Made by a program: the position numbers. A DNA stretch of 64,000 nt, from the NCBI GenBank assembly GCA_029246845.1, contig JAQWMJ010000006.1, positions 1 to 64,000 of the forward strand, read 5' to 3'. Shown in pieces: positions 1 through 6,000 of the stretch; the stretch's first letter is position 1; each line of letters begins with the position of its first letter. Source of the DNA: Thermodesulfobacteriota bacterium. Its GTDB lineage: Bacteria; Desulfobacterota_D; UBA1144.

Positions 1-3000
1 TGATTATAAGTTTGCTCTATAGCTCTTAACTCTTTTTTATGATGTGGTCCAGCACAAAAAATAGTTTGAAAATGCTCAAATGCATCCTTACGGTAAGCCA
101 TATGAAGACTTACCAGAGAATGTTGTACGTAAACATAATGAACTTTCTTCTTAGAATATTTGAGTTGAAAAGTATTTAAATCTGGTGTTGTCATCACCAT
201 CAAGTCTGTTTCTATGTTGCGGAATAACCAATTCAGGATATGCCCTTTATTAATATTGAAAGACTTATATTGAGGATCTCCTAAAAGGAGACCAGGGTCA
301 TCTACATCAGAACTAATATAGCAAATATCCCTATCTGTGATTCTCAAAAATTCTTTTATTAGTCCTTCTAGGTGCAGCCAAGAGTCTTTGCCTTCGGAAT
401 AAAATACTACACTTTTTTGAACTTTTGGAATCTGGACAAAATTAATCAATTCACTAAGGTCACTAAAGAATGTTTTCATCTTCTAGCCTACAATATGCAT
501 CTAATTTTTTTTCTTTTGCAAGTCTTTCGTAAAGGTCAAGATCACTTATAGAATCTACCTCTAGCCAGCCACCTTTTATACACACCCCCCCGACATCCCA
601 GTTGTTATCAATTAGTAATTGTATAAAATCTGTTAAATATAAATTATTTAAATCTTTCATTTTTAAAAGTTTGTTCTTCATCAAATGATTATAAAAACTA
701 ATCAGTTCGCCCAACTTATCACCTCTAACTTTTATTAAACCAATATATTGCCCTTGTATATCATTATAACTTCTCGTCTTCGATCCTAATTCCCTTATTT
801 TACAATTACTATCTACTATGAGGCTTTCCGCATCTGATAAAGGATCATCGAATCTCAATTTCCAGTAATGAAGCCAAGCTTTGTCAATAACCACACCAAC
901 TTCAGCATTACTAGCAAGTATTTTTTTAAGGTTATCTATCTCATAAACAATATCACCATATGAAATTATCAAATCACCTTTTTTTTCAATAAATGGCAAA
1001 GCATTAAACAAACTATTAACCATATTAGTAGTTTTATAATTGGCATTGTAATAACAATTGAAACCTAGTTTCTCAATAAGCTCTCCTCGATAACCAGTGG
1101 CTATTGCAATATCAGAAATCCCGGCTTTTTTTAAAGTTGAAACTTGCCTTTCTAATAAAGTTTTATTACAGAGTTCTACTAAAATTTTAGGTAAATCATT
1201 AGTTAGTGGTCTTAATCGAGTTCCTTGACCTGCAGCTAGAATTAATGCTCTCATTATTCAAAAAAGCCTTTTATAAGGTTTAAATCGTTTTGATTAAATG
1301 GTACCTCACGCTCGGGATGCCACATTATGCCAAAAATCGGAAGCTCTTTGTGATAAAAACTTTCAATTGTTCCATCTTCAGCTAGGGCTAATGGAAACAG
1401 CGACTCTCCTAGTCCTGGTTCTTCTATGCACCATTTATGATAACTATTAACATCTCTACTTCTTTCTTTTAAATATTTATTTGTAAAATTTAATTTGTGT
1501 CTAGTCCCTACATGATTCTCAATCTTTGATATTGACCCATTAAAAAAAGTGTTAATTATTTGCATGCCTCTACAAATCCCTACTACTGGAATTTTTTTTT
1601 CTATAGCAATCCTAACTAATCTTTCTTCAAAAAGATCTCTCTCTCTAGATGAATCTTGTGCATCCTTATCAAACCTATAGATACTATTGCCTCCTGTTAA
1701 AATAATTGCAGAAATATTTATACTCTCTACGATTTCCTCAGGGGAAATTAGATTAGACAACGGATAAGGTAAGAAGCCAAGTTTGCGAACTAAATAAGCC
1801 CACCTTTGATCTAAGCAGTCACGCTTTTCATCGTAATTGCTTACATTCTCAACTCTTTGACTAATGGCTAATATCTTCACAAATATAAATTGTACCTTAA
1901 TTGATAATAATAATATTATGATTAACGCAATCTATTTTAATTTTATTGCTTTTAGATAGCTTGTTAAACAACTTGTCTCCTACTCCAATAGCCGCAGGAA
2001 GACCTAATTCTGCTGCCCTAATCGCCATATGAGAGTTCGCTCCTCCATACTTGGTGATTAATCCCAAAATATTATGGCCAAAGACCCAATCATAACCAGG
2101 ATCTGCCTGCTCTATAAAAATAATTTTACCTTCTATGTCATCTTCAACTCTCAAACTTAAGTTTTTTAATTCACCTATTACTTTCTTATTAGTAATAAAA
2201 TTTATTTGGGCGCTATAATGTTCAAAACAATAAAAATCTTTTTTACTTTTTATTAGTGAAGGAATTTCAAACATATAGCTGAGTTTATGTTCTGCCATAC
2301 GTCTTTTTATAATTTTCTTAGCATTATTAATATTTAAATCACCAATGGCTAACCGCTTGAAGTCTTCATATTCTAAATAAACTATATGCTGACGAGTAAC
2401 TCCTACTTCTTTTCCAAAATCTATAAAACAATCTAATGCCCTACTTAAATTGTAAGTAAATTCTAGCTTTGTTTCTTCACGTGCCATTATTGCCTTCTTA
2501 ATATATTTCATTATTTCAATTGGACTTATATCTAAATCTAGATCCTTAAAAGCTGTGGAAATAAGTTTCTCCTGCTCTTTAGATAGTTCAAAAACCACAG
2601 GTTTTTTATTGATCTTGTTACTTTCAGATTTTAAATAATATTCTGGATCCTCCCAATAAGCAGGAGCTGTGGCATCATAAGTTCCAGGTCTTAAATGACC
2701 GTACTTCTTTATTATTTGATTTAAAGTAATTTCTTTTTTAAATAAAGCTACTTGGTCATCTTGCATCCGACTAGAAACCCCATCAATTGATTCCATAAAA
2801 AAATCCACTTCATCTTTCGTAAATATACCAATTTCAATGAAACTTTTAAGAAAGCTAATGGCAACAAAAGCATGCCGTGCAGCATGAGCAAATGCGAGAG
2901 TCCCACTCTTTTTACACTCTTCGATTAAAGAATAACCCATATTTAGTGGGTTCGTTTCTTCTTTGAAAATTTTGTATCGATTTTTTATTAAATTTTCCAT

Positions 3001-6000
3001 TGATATATGTTGATTAAAACCTACTATGGCATTTGAGGTTATGAGTTTAAGTGATTTTTCAAGCTCATGAATCTCATCCGAACTTATATTCCAAGCTCTA
3101 AATCGACTTTCTGCTTGCGCCTTAAAATTAGGCGTCCATGATGTCAAAGCTATATCAAATTCAACTTTATCATGTAACTCTGGCCTCATAGATAAATTGC
3201 CCATATAGGCCTTTACCAGCTTGGATGCTAGTTGTTTTTCAATTATAGCTGGAATAAATGACCTGAAACTAGCACTTAAATTAACATATGGTTGCCCACA
3301 AAAAGATAAAATTAATGGTTGGACTCCGAGATCTTTATAGCCAAATTCACAACGCTGCTTTGCCCAAACATCATCAGTAATTAGGAATCTATATAGGCTA
3401 AACGATAGGGGGTTTGGGCGAATTCCAATAATCTCAGCTGGATTCCAATCCGACATATTGCTAAAATATGTCGTTATCTCTGCTGGTGACTCAGATGACT
3501 CCTGATGATTGGAGAATGTTAATATAGATTCATCAAGTTTGCTTCTAAAAGAATTAGCAACACTATCATAATCTCTATGATCTACAGTAATTGGTCTAAC
3601 CTGAAAAATATAAACCAGCCCCTTGCTGTCTATAGCAAATTCAATATCTAATTTGTCAAAAGATAATAAAGATTTCAATTCATCTATCGCTTCTTGAATT
3701 GGCTCAAGCTTTGGCTCTAGATTCGCTAGCTCTTGATTCTCTTTGTCATATAAAATAATAGTTCTATCATCTTGAGATGTACCTGAGGTTATTGCTTCTA
3801 CAGAGCCTTGATTATCTTGAAAATTAAAAATATGATATGGAGCACCTGTTTCTAAATGACATGTAAAGACTACTCCGGAAAGGCTTAAATCATCGAGGAA
3901 CTCTTGAACTAGAACTTGATCGTTCTCAAATCCTTCTCCATAAGATGAAATAACTTTATCTATTTCTTTACTTATAGTGATATTTGAGGAGCTATCTACA
4001 TTTAAGATACTTCTATATTGACCAGCAAAAGAAGCAGTCCAACCATCTTCTTGAGAGGAGCTACTTCGAATAATTAATCTTTTTTTTAAAAAAAATTGTT
4101 GTATTTGTTTGACAATAGAGCTTCTATCTTGCTTCCACTTTTTTACTGTAAAGCTAATTTGATCTCCAATCTTACTTTTCTTGACCATGGGCTCTAGCCT
4201 TGATAATGTTTCAGCTTTATTGCCCAACACAAACCTTGCAACATCTTTAGGCTCGTTAAGCTCTGCCCAATTGGTACCAACATCTATGAAATCAATGCTA
4301 AACCCTTCTTTCTTCAAATATGAAAAAAGATCTAGCAAATTATCCCCAGGAACTTCGTTCTTTAATAGCTTTATTTTTTCTATAATTCTTTGGCTTAAAT
4401 GAAAAAGACCAGTAAATTCAGATTTACAGCCTTGATATTTTCCATCCGTTGGTGTGATAATCTCTGCTATTCTCAGATCTGATTTTGGACGATCTTCGAA
4501 ACGATTTTGATAATTGACATCTATTGCAACTGTAATATCTCCCTTAGCTTGGGATACCTTGTTAATAATATCAGGACGAAAAATCGTATCAGCATAAGTA
4601 AAAATAGCCGCTGTATCTTCAAAGTCAGCCTGAAAGAAAGTGTTTAAAACTGTATTAGATTTCCAATTCTTTACTATAATATAATTAATTTCTGGATACT
4701 GATTAATAATATCTTCAATATGGTAGCCACCTAAAAAATTAATCCGTTTATTGTCAATCACTTCCAAGCTATTGAGTTGCCAGTCCAGCACCTTAGTCTT
4801 TACACTAATCTCTTGAAGCACGGTAGGTTTCTCACCAGCTATTGGATAGGACGCTCCAAGAATATAAACATTAGTGGCAATCATTATATGTTCTTAGGAT
4901 TTTTGGGAACCTTAATAGGCTTCGGGTTTTTAGGATTAAGGCCAACTAAAGATTTAAACTTATGCCACAATGTCTTGAAAAATACTCCAATCATAACCGC
5001 CATTCCAATAATGATTGACATTACAACGCTTCCAGAAGCAGGGTCAATATATGCAAGAGCAACATTGGGAAAAAAGAGTATAAAAAGTATAAAATAAGAT
5101 AAATATTTCATAAAAATAAAATAATTATCATTAAGTATACAAATTAAATATAATTTTGTACATAGTATGGCTCCGGAGGAGGGATTTGAACCCCCGACAA
5201 AGTGATTAACAGTCACCTGCTCTGCCAGCTGAGCTACTCCGGAATATTAAACTATAAAACTATCAATTTAATGTAAATGGTCTTAACAGTCAAGCAACTT
5301 CACTAGTTATTGGCAAGATAAACCTATAAAAGTATAATGATTACTAAATATTAATGAGGAAAAATAATAGTAAGCTTAAAAGTAATAACAAGAATCTGCC
5401 AGTGCCAGCAAATTCGCTGGAGAAATATCTTACAGAAATAAGTAATTATGAAATTTTGTCACGCGAAGAAGAGGTAAAGCATGCCCAGGAATATAGAGAC
5501 TCAGGTAACCGAGAATCTGCTAGAAAGCTAATAACTGCAAATCTTAAATTCGTAGTAAAGATTGCTATGGAATATAAAAATTATGGACTTAATTTAATGG
5601 ATGTTATACAAGAAGGGAATCTTGGTCTTATGCAGGCAGTTACTAAGTTTGATCCAACAAAAAGGTATAGGTTAATTTCTTATGGAGTATGGTGGATAAG
5701 AGCATATATACAGAACTTTATAATGAAGAACTGGAGTCTTGTAAAAATTGGAACAACGCAAGGGCAAAGAAAGCTATTTTATAAAATAAGATCGGCTAAA
5801 AGTTTATATAACTCTGGAGATCTTTCCTTGGAAGAATACTATTCAAAATTATCTAGTGATCTTAAAGTCTCGATTAAAGAAATAAAAGAAATGGATCAAA
5901 GAATGGGTGGAAAGGACTACTCCCTAGATGACGAAATTAAGACAGATGAAAAACAAACAAAAATCGACTTTCTGCCTTCTGGTTCGCAAAGTCAGGAAGA

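Follow-up and report, generated by a model that had tools for sequence, protein, structure and literature searches.

A candidate phosphoramidate cassette in a Dadabacterium: Campylobacter-type CDP-amidate genes beside a gene for a TagF-like transferase

The window, a 64,000-nt stretch at the start of contig C38 of the Dadabacterial genome G000, opens with a tight operon (3–5111) whose called ORFs all lie on the minus strand (Table 1). The cassette genes overlap or lie no more than 16 nt apart. Position 5111 is the first base of the start codon (ATG) of a membrane ORF of 75 aa, and at the other end a TagF-like gene runs off the contig and is continued on C45. Reverse-complemented, the start of C38 shares an exact 141-nt overlap with the start of C45, and the gene order 995–208–263–381–751 aa is unbroken in three other Dadabacterial genomes (G003, G004 and G006). 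Together these confirm the proposed join of the two contig starts and place the TagF-like and LtaS-like genes next in the same operon. A 17-nt overlap links the TagF-like gene to the cytidylyltransferase gene, and a 4-nt overlap links it to the sulfatase-like gene; these three genes therefore belong to one operon. ORF calls and Pfam and NCBIfam matches agree with the genes, and their positions, given in the initial annotation. Relative to G003, dN/dS is 0.09–0.18 across all six genes; every cassette gene is under purifying selection. A further ORF of 110 aa (4884–5216) was rejected as an artefact, since its initial codons read through the tRNA gene.

Table 1. Features of the cassette and its upstream boundary (window coordinates unless C45 is given)
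Feature	Position	Strand	Remarks
tRNA-Asn(GTT)	5168..5243	−	upstream boundary of cassette; ARAGORN; Rfam 66.7 bits
Small membrane ORF, 75 aa	4884..5111	−	stop overlaps kinase ATG
995-aa fusion protein, whole ORF	1897–4884	−	
N-terminal domain, residues 1–215 of 995-aa protein	4240..4884	−	cytidylyltransferase paralogue
L-glutamine-kinase-like part, residues about 213–995	1897..4248	−	NF004508, PF01326, PF00391
Gamma-glutamyl-CDP-amidate hydrolase (Cj1417) homologue, class-I glutamine-amidotransferase-type, 208 aa	1254..1880	−	Peptidase_C26/GATase
LicC-like cytidylyltransferase, CTP:phosphoglutamine cytidylyltransferase (Cj1416) homologue, 263 aa	463..1254	−	NTP_transferase
TagF-like (Glyphos_transf) gene, first 159 codons, runs off contig	3..479	−	remainder G000:C45:2-808; about 380 aa in total
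LtaS/EptA-like membrane protein, 751 aa	C45:805-3060		next after TagF-like gene

The 995-aa protein consists of an L-glutamine-kinase-like part preceded by an extra domain. The kinase part matches NF004508 at 882.5 bits (cut-off 501; E 2.3e-265; residues 213–994) and covers the model end to end (positions 4–788 of 789). It contains a PPDK_N domain (PF01326, ATP-grasp) and a PEP-utilizers swivel domain (PF00391). The latter carries the phospho-histidine motif GGANSHMAIRAAE; both His952 and the motif itself are unchanged across 13 fused and 8 unfused homologues. For the kinase dN/dS is 0.10 against G003. The closest relatives are fused proteins of marine bacteria, at 45–60% identity, as against the 36% to Campylobacter first noted. 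The N-terminal domain had been described as an additional nucleotidyltransferase, and the homology is sound: it aligns with the cassette's own cytidylyltransferase by BLASTP (residues 1–215, 23% identity, E 4e-8) and by hhalign (probability 99.9%, E 3.9e-31, 215 columns), while no Pfam match was found even at E 10. In the hhalign alignment the signature loop lacks 5 residues, and the GxGxR loop is shortened and degenerate (LGASYPIAGEKP), with neither the Arg nor the Lys invariant among 15 sequences. With this degenerate nucleotide-binding signature, the domain is probably non-catalytic rather than a second active cytidylyltransferase.

The hydrolase (Peptidase_C26, 91 bits) has NF045546, the gamma-glutamyl-CDP-amidate hydrolase family, as its top NCBIfam match, with a score of 164.7 bits that falls under the cut-off of 250; the runner-up family scores 52 bits. 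Among 41 sequences, at least 98% keep Cys103, His188 and Glu190. Like Cj1417, it has a soluble architecture, with no signal or transmembrane segment. The 263-aa cytidylyltransferase (NTP_transferase, 52.5 bits) has LicC (1jyk) as its closest PDB match, and its LAAGxGxR...PK and YGD motifs are canonical and invariant in 14 sequences. The phospho-His motif, Cys-His-Glu triad and GxGxR/K signature are thus all intact, and the cassette encodes the three precursor enzymes, as had been proposed. Their substrates are predicted from homology, at the 36–42% identity to the Campylobacter enzymes recorded initially.

The protein labelled a 'CDP-alcohol phosphotransferase' in the initial annotation is a member of Glyphos_transf (PF04464; 38.4 bits on the C45 part, cut-off 22.1) and not of the PF01066 family. 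A Foldseek search with a confident structure model gave TagF and TarL as first matches, and His120 and RPH229–231 are invariant. This is the only Glyphos_transf gene in G000. Public sources label the family 'CDP-glycerol glycerophosphotransferase'. The 751-aa protein has 5–6 hydrophobic helices followed by a Sulfatase domain (43.1 bits, cut-off 25) that retains N179, D186, H382, D439-H440, a near-invariant T223 and two invariant Cys. Its profile matches LtaS (E 4e-10), and no NCBIfam family was found for it. The 75-aa ORF contains two hydrophobic segments: a signal-like N-terminus, followed by an AYIDP(A/G)SGS motif, and one transmembrane helix with KTxWxKxKS. It has no Pfam or NCBIfam family, and the Atlas offered nothing but unnamed clusters, all below 0.9. 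About 20 other loci, spread over several phyla, have a homologue with the motif conserved immediately upstream of the kinase; the dN/dS of the ORF against G003 (0.09) comes from only 4 differences.

The trio is not a peculiarity of Campylobacter and this Dadabacterium but is very widespread, its relatives being encoded in at least 555 stretches of species-representative genomes. A Borg preprint reports such a cluster outside Campylobacter. JGI labels many family members 'glutamine kinase'. In a first scan the kinase and cytidylyltransferase occurred together in 61/61 loci, with the hydrolase beside the kinase in 56, and in nearly all of 125 distinct loci the three genes are neighbours on one strand. 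These 125 loci are mutually related, so that the counts overstate independence. In 74 of them the trio is accompanied by an APS-kinase-like gene or N-terminal domain but not by a TagF-like gene, and in 32 by a TagF-like gene scoring at least 100 bits but not by APS kinase, which in other genomes was sought over a distance of about 10 kb; one locus combines the two partners and 18 show neither. A trio with one of these partners thus almost never has the other. The LtaS/EptA-like gene was found in 15 loci, none with APS kinase. A YidC-like gene accompanies the cassette in 24 loci and a Formyl_trans_N-like gene in 21, both missing from the Dadabacterial cassette.

A tree of the kinase domain places the window in a clade of 43 loci, also including fused kinases of Shewanella and relatives, that is separated from the APS-kinase clade with support of 99. 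None of the 43 has APS kinase, and 42 have the extra N-terminal domain. A Glyphos_transf gene is present in 31 of them, in 27 of one subfamily and in 4 of a second. Three of the TagF-less loci carry, beside the trio, a CDP-dependent phosphotransferase of another family, LicD (L025) or CDP-OH_P_transf (L036 and L041). In the other clade, of 15 loci, 11 have APS kinase and one a TagF-like gene. Campylobacter is assumed to belong to the APS-kinase clade; the tree holds no Campylobacter sequence. Fused kinases with neither partner within reach occur in 13 loci, some of them on cut contigs. As the initial annotation held, the genome appears free of APS kinase: a PF01583 profile search found none in G000 (91% complete), nor in G003 and G006. 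A P-loop candidate in G004 (18.8 bits, or 21.6 with frame neighbours; cut-off 21.1) was read as a chance match.

Within the Dadabacteria the cassette is indeed patchy. NF004508 exceeds its cut-off in 3 of the 18 other genomes of the family, with a contig-end fragment in a fourth, and in none of 22 genomes from other families of the class. The 8-kb cassette adjoins tRNA-Asn and is present in some genomes only; in the cassette-free G001, G007 and G008 the same tRNA-Asn is followed directly by genes for a 125-aa membrane protein and umuDC. Between G003 and G004 the flanks are 85–96% identical and the cassette genes 60–69%, and the G004 cassette is closer to that of G006, from another genus (69–79%). 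The cassette has moved between genera. In both presence or absence and swapping it behaves as a flexible island, typical of surface-variation loci.

We propose that the operon builds and spends a P–N donor, with direct transfer from CDP-amidate by the TagF-like enzyme, and give this reading as a whole about even chances. From homology to Campylobacter, the kinase part would phosphorylate L-glutamine on its amide nitrogen via a phospho-histidine, the 263-aa cytidylyltransferase would join CMP from CTP to give CDP-L-glutamine, and the amidotransferase-type hydrolase would remove glutamate to yield cytidine diphosphoramidate (CDP-amidate). Gene association and TagF-family chemistry suggest that 3'-phosphorylation is then absent, and that the soluble TagF-like enzyme uses CDP-amidate as TagF uses CDP-glycerol, so that phosphoramidate would pass to a hydroxyl group on an envelope acceptor, at the membrane's inner face, and CMP would be released. 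The place of the window in the TagF branch, with APS kinase in none of 43 loci and none in the genome, supports this direct transfer, as does the near-exclusive choice of partner. The surface glycan named earlier as the acceptor is conjectural. Neither the G000 genome nor its lineage yielded LpxC, so LPS is an unlikely acceptor, and the organism seems to lack lipid A synthesis. Since the cassette contains no methyltransferase, the transferred group is expected to be an unmethylated phosphoramidate. Least certainly, the LtaS/EptA-like protein (some five N-terminal helices and an outward alkaline-phosphatase-type domain with a Thr nucleophile) and the 75-aa protein may act extracytoplasmically on this product.

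Other readings were weighed against direct transfer. The trio may make CDP-L-glutamine or CDP-amidate while the TagF-like enzyme uses another donor and an unrecognised enzyme places the phosphoramidate. That donor could be CDP-L-glutamine, phospho-glutamine being moved and later trimmed by the hydrolase, or CDP-glycerol, giving a short glycerol-phosphate chain. Clostridioides difficile FtaD is a TagF-like enzyme that accepts CDP-amino acids, and the public family label names CDP-glycerol. In three loci of a sister clade (L040, L045 and L049), moreover, the TagF-like gene lies upstream, beside a cytidylyltransferase-like gene (CTP_transf_like, PF01467) and a PEP-mutase–cytidylyltransferase fusion, and may there serve another CDP or CMP donor. 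However, the Dadabacterial cassette has neither a second complete cytidylyltransferase nor a glycerol-3-phosphate cytidylyltransferase gene, the hydrolase is soluble without signal or membrane segment, and the near-exclusive alternation with APS kinase would not be expected unless the TagF-like enzyme takes the place of the step needing a 3'-phosphorylated donor. A different donor is thus unlikely.

A Campylobacter-like route, with an unrecognised kinase (elsewhere or in the unassembled 9%), an unrecognised transferase and the TagF-like and LtaS-like genes as a separate travelling envelope module, is distinctly improbable. The incompleteness of G000 leaves room for it, and, because six loci combine fused kinase and APS kinase, a fused kinase is compatible with the kinase route; Sulfotransfer_1 (sulfotransferase-fold) genes, whose family uses 3'-phosphorylated PAPS-type donors, also adjoin the trio in L020, L021 and L039. 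Yet, the G004 chance match aside, PF01583 was not found in the four cassette-bearing Dadabacterial genomes, the 43 loci of the window's clade show no APS kinase, the overlaps tie both envelope genes into the operon, and an unannotated family that accompanies APS kinase in 23 loci is absent here. That the fused kinases changed substrate, acting on an amide or amine other than glutamine so that the final group is no simple phosphoramidate, would fit the well-separated clade, its extra domain and the sub-threshold hydrolase score. It is very unlikely, given the end-to-end NF004508 match well above cut-off, the intact glutaminase-type triad and the same three-gene unit in both clades.

The TagF-like protein shares with TagF, TarF and TarL its PF04464 membership, a GT-B-like two-domain fold and conserved His, SW, RPH and SDWS motifs, the last three of which we take to be equivalent to those of TagF. 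It differs in being only ~380 aa long, lacking the membrane-binding N-terminal region, showing 13–18% identity to solved members and accompanying CDP-amidate genes rather than TagD/TarI. The 751-aa protein resembles LtaS, EptA (MCR-type) and OpgB in its N-terminal helices and outward-facing Sulfatase-fold domain, metal ligands, Thr at the nucleophile position, conserved Cys pair and LtaS profile matches; unlike them, the Dadabacterial form has an extra ~200-aa C-terminal region and is assigned to no NCBIfam family.

Unmethylated phosphoramide is chemically known on an envelope glycan, in the LPS cores of Shewanella sp. MR-4 and Xanthomonas campestris (PMC3210612; PMC8042644), and is tied to no genes in the available parts of those accounts; the apparent lack of lipid A sets the Dadabacterium apart. 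In C. difficile flagellin Type A modification, as described in the accessible sections of two reports (bioRxiv 10.64898/2026.02.12.704994; PMC10714395), a LicC-like cytidylyltransferase (FtaB/CD0242) likewise makes a CDP-activated non-alcohol donor, and the TagF-like FtaD (CD0244), whose fold, like that of the cassette protein, resembles UDP-GlcNAc 2-epimerase, moves phospho-N-methylthreonine from CDP-N-methylthreonine onto GlcNAc with release of CMP. As those sections present it, the system differs in its CDP-(N-methyl)threonine donor, phosphodiester bond and flagellin GlcNAc acceptor, and includes no P–N bond, PEP-utilizer kinase or amidotransferase-type hydrolase. The closest parallel to the precursor steps is the MeOPN pathway of C. 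jejuni, for which the portions available of two papers give Cj1418 as glutamine kinase, Cj1416 as cytidylyltransferase, Cj1417 as hydrolase and Cj1415 as CDP-amidate 3'-kinase (PMC11800397; PMC6429109). The cassette departs from it in having no Cj1415-type kinase, methyltransferase or surrounding capsule locus, in the extra cytidylyltransferase-like domain of its kinase, and in carrying TagF-like and LtaS/EptA-like genes instead. The first three enzymes are the same, their genes adjacent and their catalytic motifs conserved, and CDP-amidate is the expected shared product; the TagF-type cassette would thus represent a common, apparently undescribed variant of the Campylobacter-type phosphoramidate pathway.

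The genes at the start of contig C38 are part of a cassette. It belongs to a variant of the phosphoramidate pathway that is large and seems not to have been described before. Five reading frames are arranged head to tail, all on the minus strand, with intergenic gaps of 16 nt or less and three overlapping gene junctions. The reverse complement of the C38 start shares an exact 141-nt overlap with the start of a second contig, C45, of the same genome (G000; 1.04 Mb in 54 contigs, 91% complete), and the gene order 995-208-263-381-751 aa is unbroken in three relatives (G003, G004 and G006). 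The operon therefore runs on into C45, and the gene set that the initial annotation had placed across the two contigs is real. A 110-aa ORF called upstream of the kinase gene was rejected as an artefact, its first codons being read through the tRNA-Asn(GTT) gene. This tRNA was the sole match in an Rfam search, and scans for promoters and terminators returned sites no more numerous than in shuffled sequence.

Features of the cassette and its flank; positions without a prefix refer to the window (G000:C38:1-64000), and G000:C45 is the second contig
Feature	Position	Strand	Remark
75-aa ORF	4884-5111	-	stop overlaps kinase start
995-aa glutamine-kinase homologue	1897-4884	-	
208-aa hydrolase	1254-1880	-	
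263-aa cytidylyltransferase	463-1254	-	
TagF-like gene, first 159 codons	3-479	-	runs off contig
TagF-like gene, remainder	G000:C45:2-808		whole gene ~380 aa
751-aa sulfatase-like gene	G000:C45:805-3060		
tRNA-Asn(GTT)	5168-5243		

The 995-aa protein matches NF004508 (PRK05849; Cj1418-type L-glutamine kinase) with 882.5 bits against a cut-off of 501, over model positions 4-788 of 789. This match was confirmed on the genome, and by the equivalog model the protein is a predicted L-glutamine kinase. It contains PPDK_N (PF01326, 59 bits) and PEP-utilizer (PF00391, 49 bits) domains, and its phospho-histidine motif, GGANSH952M, does not vary among 13 fused and 8 unfused homologues, the fused ones bearing an N-terminal cytidylyltransferase-like domain. 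As a search of PDB sequences matched only the swivel domain of PEP synthases, the kinase is without a solved close relative. Residues 1-215 are a paralogue of the cassette's own cytidylyltransferase (BLASTP E 4e-8; hhalign 99.9%). The GxGxR loop of this domain is five residues shorter, with Arg and Lys both unconserved, and the domain is probably non-catalytic. The 208-aa protein is a class-I amidotransferase-type hydrolase; of 41 sequences compared, at least 98% share its Cys103-His188-Glu190 triad. Its best NCBIfam match, the Cj1417 model NF045546, lies below the cut-off of 250 at 164.7 bits and beats the next family by more than 110 bits; the protein is best described as a homologue of gamma-glutamyl-CDP-amidate hydrolase that probably acts in the same way, not as an equivalog. 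The 263-aa protein, encoded beside the other two, is a LicC-like nucleotidyltransferase (PF00483, 52.5 bits) whose signature residues L6-A-A-G-x-G-x-R13, P22-K23 and Y99-x-D101 are common to all 14 sequences compared. Its identification as a Cj1416 homologue rests on PF00483, this signature and adjacency, not on a family-specific model. By homology, the initial annotation was right about the first three steps of the pathway, those of kinase, hydrolase and cytidylyltransferase.

The TagF-like protein matches PF04464 (cut-off 22.1) with 38.4 bits for the part on C45, and its counterparts in G003 and G006 score 31.2 and 38.8 bits. The 751-aa protein consists of 5-6 hydrophobic segments in residues 9-156 followed by a Sulfatase-fold domain (PF00884, 43.1 bits, cut-off 25), and its profile reaches the LtaS structure 2w5q at E 4.3e-10. 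Across 16 sequences D186, D439 and H440 do not vary and T223 is conserved in at least 90%; two Cys residues are also invariant. The formylglycine motif, C/SxPxR, is not present at the T223 site. Fold, metal ligands, Thr and TM helices fit the protein to the class of LtaS/EptA-like membrane phosphotransferases. The 75-aa protein begins like a signal sequence, carries the motif AYIDP(A/G)SGS and contains a single helix. Homologues are encoded directly upstream of the kinase in ~20 loci from several phyla, and a search of the Atlas gave only unnamed clusters (0.89).

Of 8,000 candidates scored against the kinase part of the 995-aa protein, more than 5,000 proved to be relatives at E 1e-10 or better. 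Almost all of the top 120 have a length of ~990-1000 aa. They are 45-60% identical, and their sources are Pseudothioglobus, Shewanella, Vibrio, Photobacterium, Psychromonas, Woeseiaceae, Nitrospina, Chloroflexota and numerous marine contigs without a name; many of them are labelled 'glutamine kinase' by JGI. RefSeq annotation of the cassette genes is still generic. Two pattern scans of species-representative genomes gave 235 confirmed relatives and at least 555, respectively, spanning Acidobacteriota, Pseudomonas, Azospirillum, Planctomycetota, Firmicutes, CPR groups, Prochlorococcus and Pelagibacteraceae. With relatives in at least 555 stretches of such genomes from many phyla, the label 'Campylobacter-type' given at first is too narrow. 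This spread, and an earlier preprint describing a similar cluster on Borg elements of archaea, mean that its occurrence beyond Campylobacter is nothing new. A kinase relative is carried by 14 plasmid records. Plasmid pYa108 of Vibrio alfacsensis (L162; NZ_AP024168.1:121559-142528) holds a kinase-hydrolase-cytidylyltransferase-TagF-like set that adjoins cysDN, glycosyltransferases and an XrtA/PEP-CTERM amidotransferase, all generically annotated.

The genes that accompany the kinase fall into two patterns. ORFs were called in 135 fetched loci and scored with profiles built in this analysis, ~10 kb being inspected on each side of the kinase; 125 distinct loci were kept after duplicates and kinase fragments scoring 400 bits or less had been dropped. 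An APS-kinase-like gene or N-terminal domain (PF01583, the family of the Cj1415-type CDP-amidate 3'-kinase) is found without a TagF-like gene in 74 loci and a TagF-like gene (at least 100 bits) without APS kinase in 32, with both partners in one locus (L145) and neither in 18; the loci are mutually related, so these counts are not independent. The sulfatase-like gene occurs in 15 of the 125 loci and never with APS kinase, and an unannotated family of 456-1168 aa is present in 23 loci with APS kinase and one without. Searched against 5.8 billion proteins, this family gave a single match; as it bore no name, it could not be tied to the Campylobacter MeOPN transferases Cj1421/1422. Among the 74 APS-kinase loci, 34 have the APS kinase fused to the N-terminus of the glutamine kinase, a form common in Acidobacteriota that is predicted to unite the opening and closing steps of Campylobacter-type donor synthesis. 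The fusions are found among L090-L150 (e.g. L100:9497-12310 and L103:9386-12310), mostly from Acidobacteriota, Bryobacterales and Gemmatimonadales.

A FastTree phylogeny of the kinase domain separates the same two patterns. Its 59 rows comprise the window and 58 loci from the first scan, which had yielded 61; three short-fragment loci were omitted, and Campylobacter has no row. Clade 1 contains 15 loci, 11 with APS kinase and one with a TagF-like gene. Clade 2 contains 43 loci and the window; the kinase is fused in 42, APS kinase occurs in none, and Glyphos_transf (PF04464) genes are found in 27 + 4 loci, the YidC-like gene in 24 and the sulfatase-like gene in 15. Of the clade 2 loci that lack a TagF-like gene, three have LicD (L025) or CDP-OH_P_transf (L036 and L041) beside the trio of kinase, hydrolase and cytidylyltransferase genes, these being other families of CDP-dependent phosphotransferase. 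The search for PF01583 was negative in G000, G003 and G006, and G004 gave only an 18.8-bit P-loop match; 11 of 14 control genomes were positive. On partner alternation, tree clades, the other phosphotransferases and the PF01583 search together, clade 2 appears to spend CDP-amidate directly via a CMP-releasing phosphotransferase. Clade 1, presumably including Campylobacter, would first make a 3'-phosphorylated donor. Direct transfer by the TagF-like enzyme, as proposed in the initial annotation, gains support from this comparison. Searches of the available literature found no paper on the TagF-type variant or on phosphoramidate polysaccharides of marine bacteria, and one for homologues of MeOPN genes in other bacteria gave only irrelevant papers; a term search of the Dadabacteria genome paper found no mention of the cassette.

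Further genes recur around the kinase in other genomes. The TagF-type cassette is accompanied in 24 loci by a YidC/Oxa1-like membrane protein of ~370-410 aa and in 21 loci by a ~450-aa protein with a weak Formyl_trans_N match (L075:15572-18162, L029:15720-18134 and L051:15722-18106). Proteins of ~800 aa in Colwellia and Vibrio appear, from length alone, to be fusions of the two. Both genes are absent from the Dadabacterial cassette, and a single protein query for the Formyl_trans_N-like partner, itself weak and without a match anywhere, did not find it in G000. In the sister clade, a PEP-mutase-cytidylyltransferase fusion and a cytidylyltransferase-like CTP_transf_like gene (PF01467) precede the cassette (L040:5285-9969, L045:3-3829 and L049:1377-6046), and phosphonate and phosphoramidate pathways therefore lie side by side. 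Sulfotransferase-fold genes, possible users of a 3'-phosphorylated donor, are found beside a fused-kinase trio without a TagF-like gene (L020:1487-2380, L021:14562-15437 and L039:17267-18142). Gammaproteobacterial cassettes are embedded in polysaccharide loci that also hold glycosyltransferases, DegT and epimerases.

The window, G003 and G004 carry the 8.0-kb cassette between tRNA-Asn and the gene for a 125-aa membrane protein. In G001, of the same genus, G007 and G008, alaS-sigma-tRNA-Asn is followed directly by this gene and umuDC, without the cassette. The 125-aa gene and umuD-umuC are thus kept with or without it; in G000 they lie directly behind it (G000:C45:3127-5240), the 125-aa protein having four helices, no clear family and a weak YtpI match. 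In G006 (L013:3958-4032 and 6671-6746) the cassette lies elsewhere, with a second tRNA-Asn copy before it and a second 125-aa gene copy after it, and has moved together with them. No direct repeat of the tRNA end (att-like) was found at the far side of the cassette and no integrase among its neighbours, and since its GC content of 0.326 equals the genome mean of 0.326 the island is not compositionally foreign. Between G003 and G004 the flanking genes are 85-96% identical and the cassette genes 60-69%. The G004 cassette is nearer to that of G006, another genus (69-79%), and cassettes have therefore been exchanged. All four Dadabacterial kinases fall into a single clade (support 100), sister to a clade of Dehalococcoidia, Marinimicrobia and a gammaproteobacterial MAG (support 97). 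The six cassette genes are under purifying selection (dN/dS 0.09-0.18 against G003). The stretch is present, by at least half of sampled words, in 14 marine metagenome runs from at least 11 studies. Contigs from three metatranscriptome runs (two studies) match the genes for cytidylyltransferase, hydrolase and kinase with 90-99% identity; such contigs may stem from DNA, show neither strand nor level and are not proof of transcription, and gaps in them are uninformative. In metagenome and metatranscriptome data, contig depth at window 5134-5300 rises to 82 to 360, compared with ~10, and many loose contig ends begin inside the tRNA gene, as expected for sequence common to many organisms.

LpxC (PF03331) was not found in G000, and among 41 genomes of the class (G000 and 40 relatives, many closed) only a 53-aa fragment was detected, in one 78%-complete MAG. 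LPS is therefore an unlikely acceptor in the Dadabacterium, and the 'surface glycan' first suggested is too narrow a description. A gene for Omp85/BamA is present on another G000 contig, C40, and the lineage may possess a lipid A-free outer membrane. It is conceivable, if on balance doubtful, that the TagF-type cassette is a self-contained two-stage system for envelope phosphoramidation, common in marine bacteria. On the inner face, the TagF-like enzyme would use CDP-amidate to load a membrane lipid or lipid-linked carrier with the P-N group; the carrier would then be flipped, perhaps with the help of a dedicated YidC-like protein in many taxa, and on the outer face the EptA/LtaS-like enzyme and its 75-aa partner would pass the phosphoramidate to the final acceptor. 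In the Dadabacterium the surface so decorated would be an outer membrane without LPS, and the system would provide a swappable surface marker against phages and grazers.

P-N bonded groups at the cell surface are regarded as rare, and a review (PMC6429109) describes Campylobacter as the only source of sugar phosphoramidates known to date. The gene evidence places the precursor pathway in hundreds of species of many phyla, splitting into two downstream routes, of which the TagF route dominates marine lineages (Vibrio, Colwellia, Shewanella, Woeseiaceae, Nitrospinaceae, Marinimicrobia, Dehalococcoidia and Dadabacteria). Should this TagF route operate as suggested, the TagF family would gain a new donor, and even streamlined ocean genomes of 1 Mb would devote 8 kb to variable envelope decoration. 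Cultured carriers exist, such as V. alfacsensis 04Ya108 with pYa108, Colwellia psychrerythraea GAB14E and Litorilituus lipolyticus RZ04, and the idea is therefore directly testable.

The Dadabacterial system differs from the Campylobacter MeOPN system in that the CDP-amidate 3'-kinase (Cj1415) was not found in the cassette genomes, and Pfam matches within the cassette include no methyltransferase, compared with Cj1419/1420 of Campylobacter. LPS of both Shewanella sp. MR-4 and Xanthomonas campestris is known to bear unmethylated phosphoramide groups (PMC3210612; PMC8042644), and the TagF route, if it operates as suggested, would offer a candidate genetic basis for unexplained groups of this kind in some LPS cores. 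For the TagF-like step, the TagF-like FtaD of C. difficile, described as transferring phospho-N-methylthreonine from its CDP conjugate (bioRxiv 10.64898/2026.02.12.704994; PMC10714395), provides a worked-out precedent for the proposed use of CDP-amidate.
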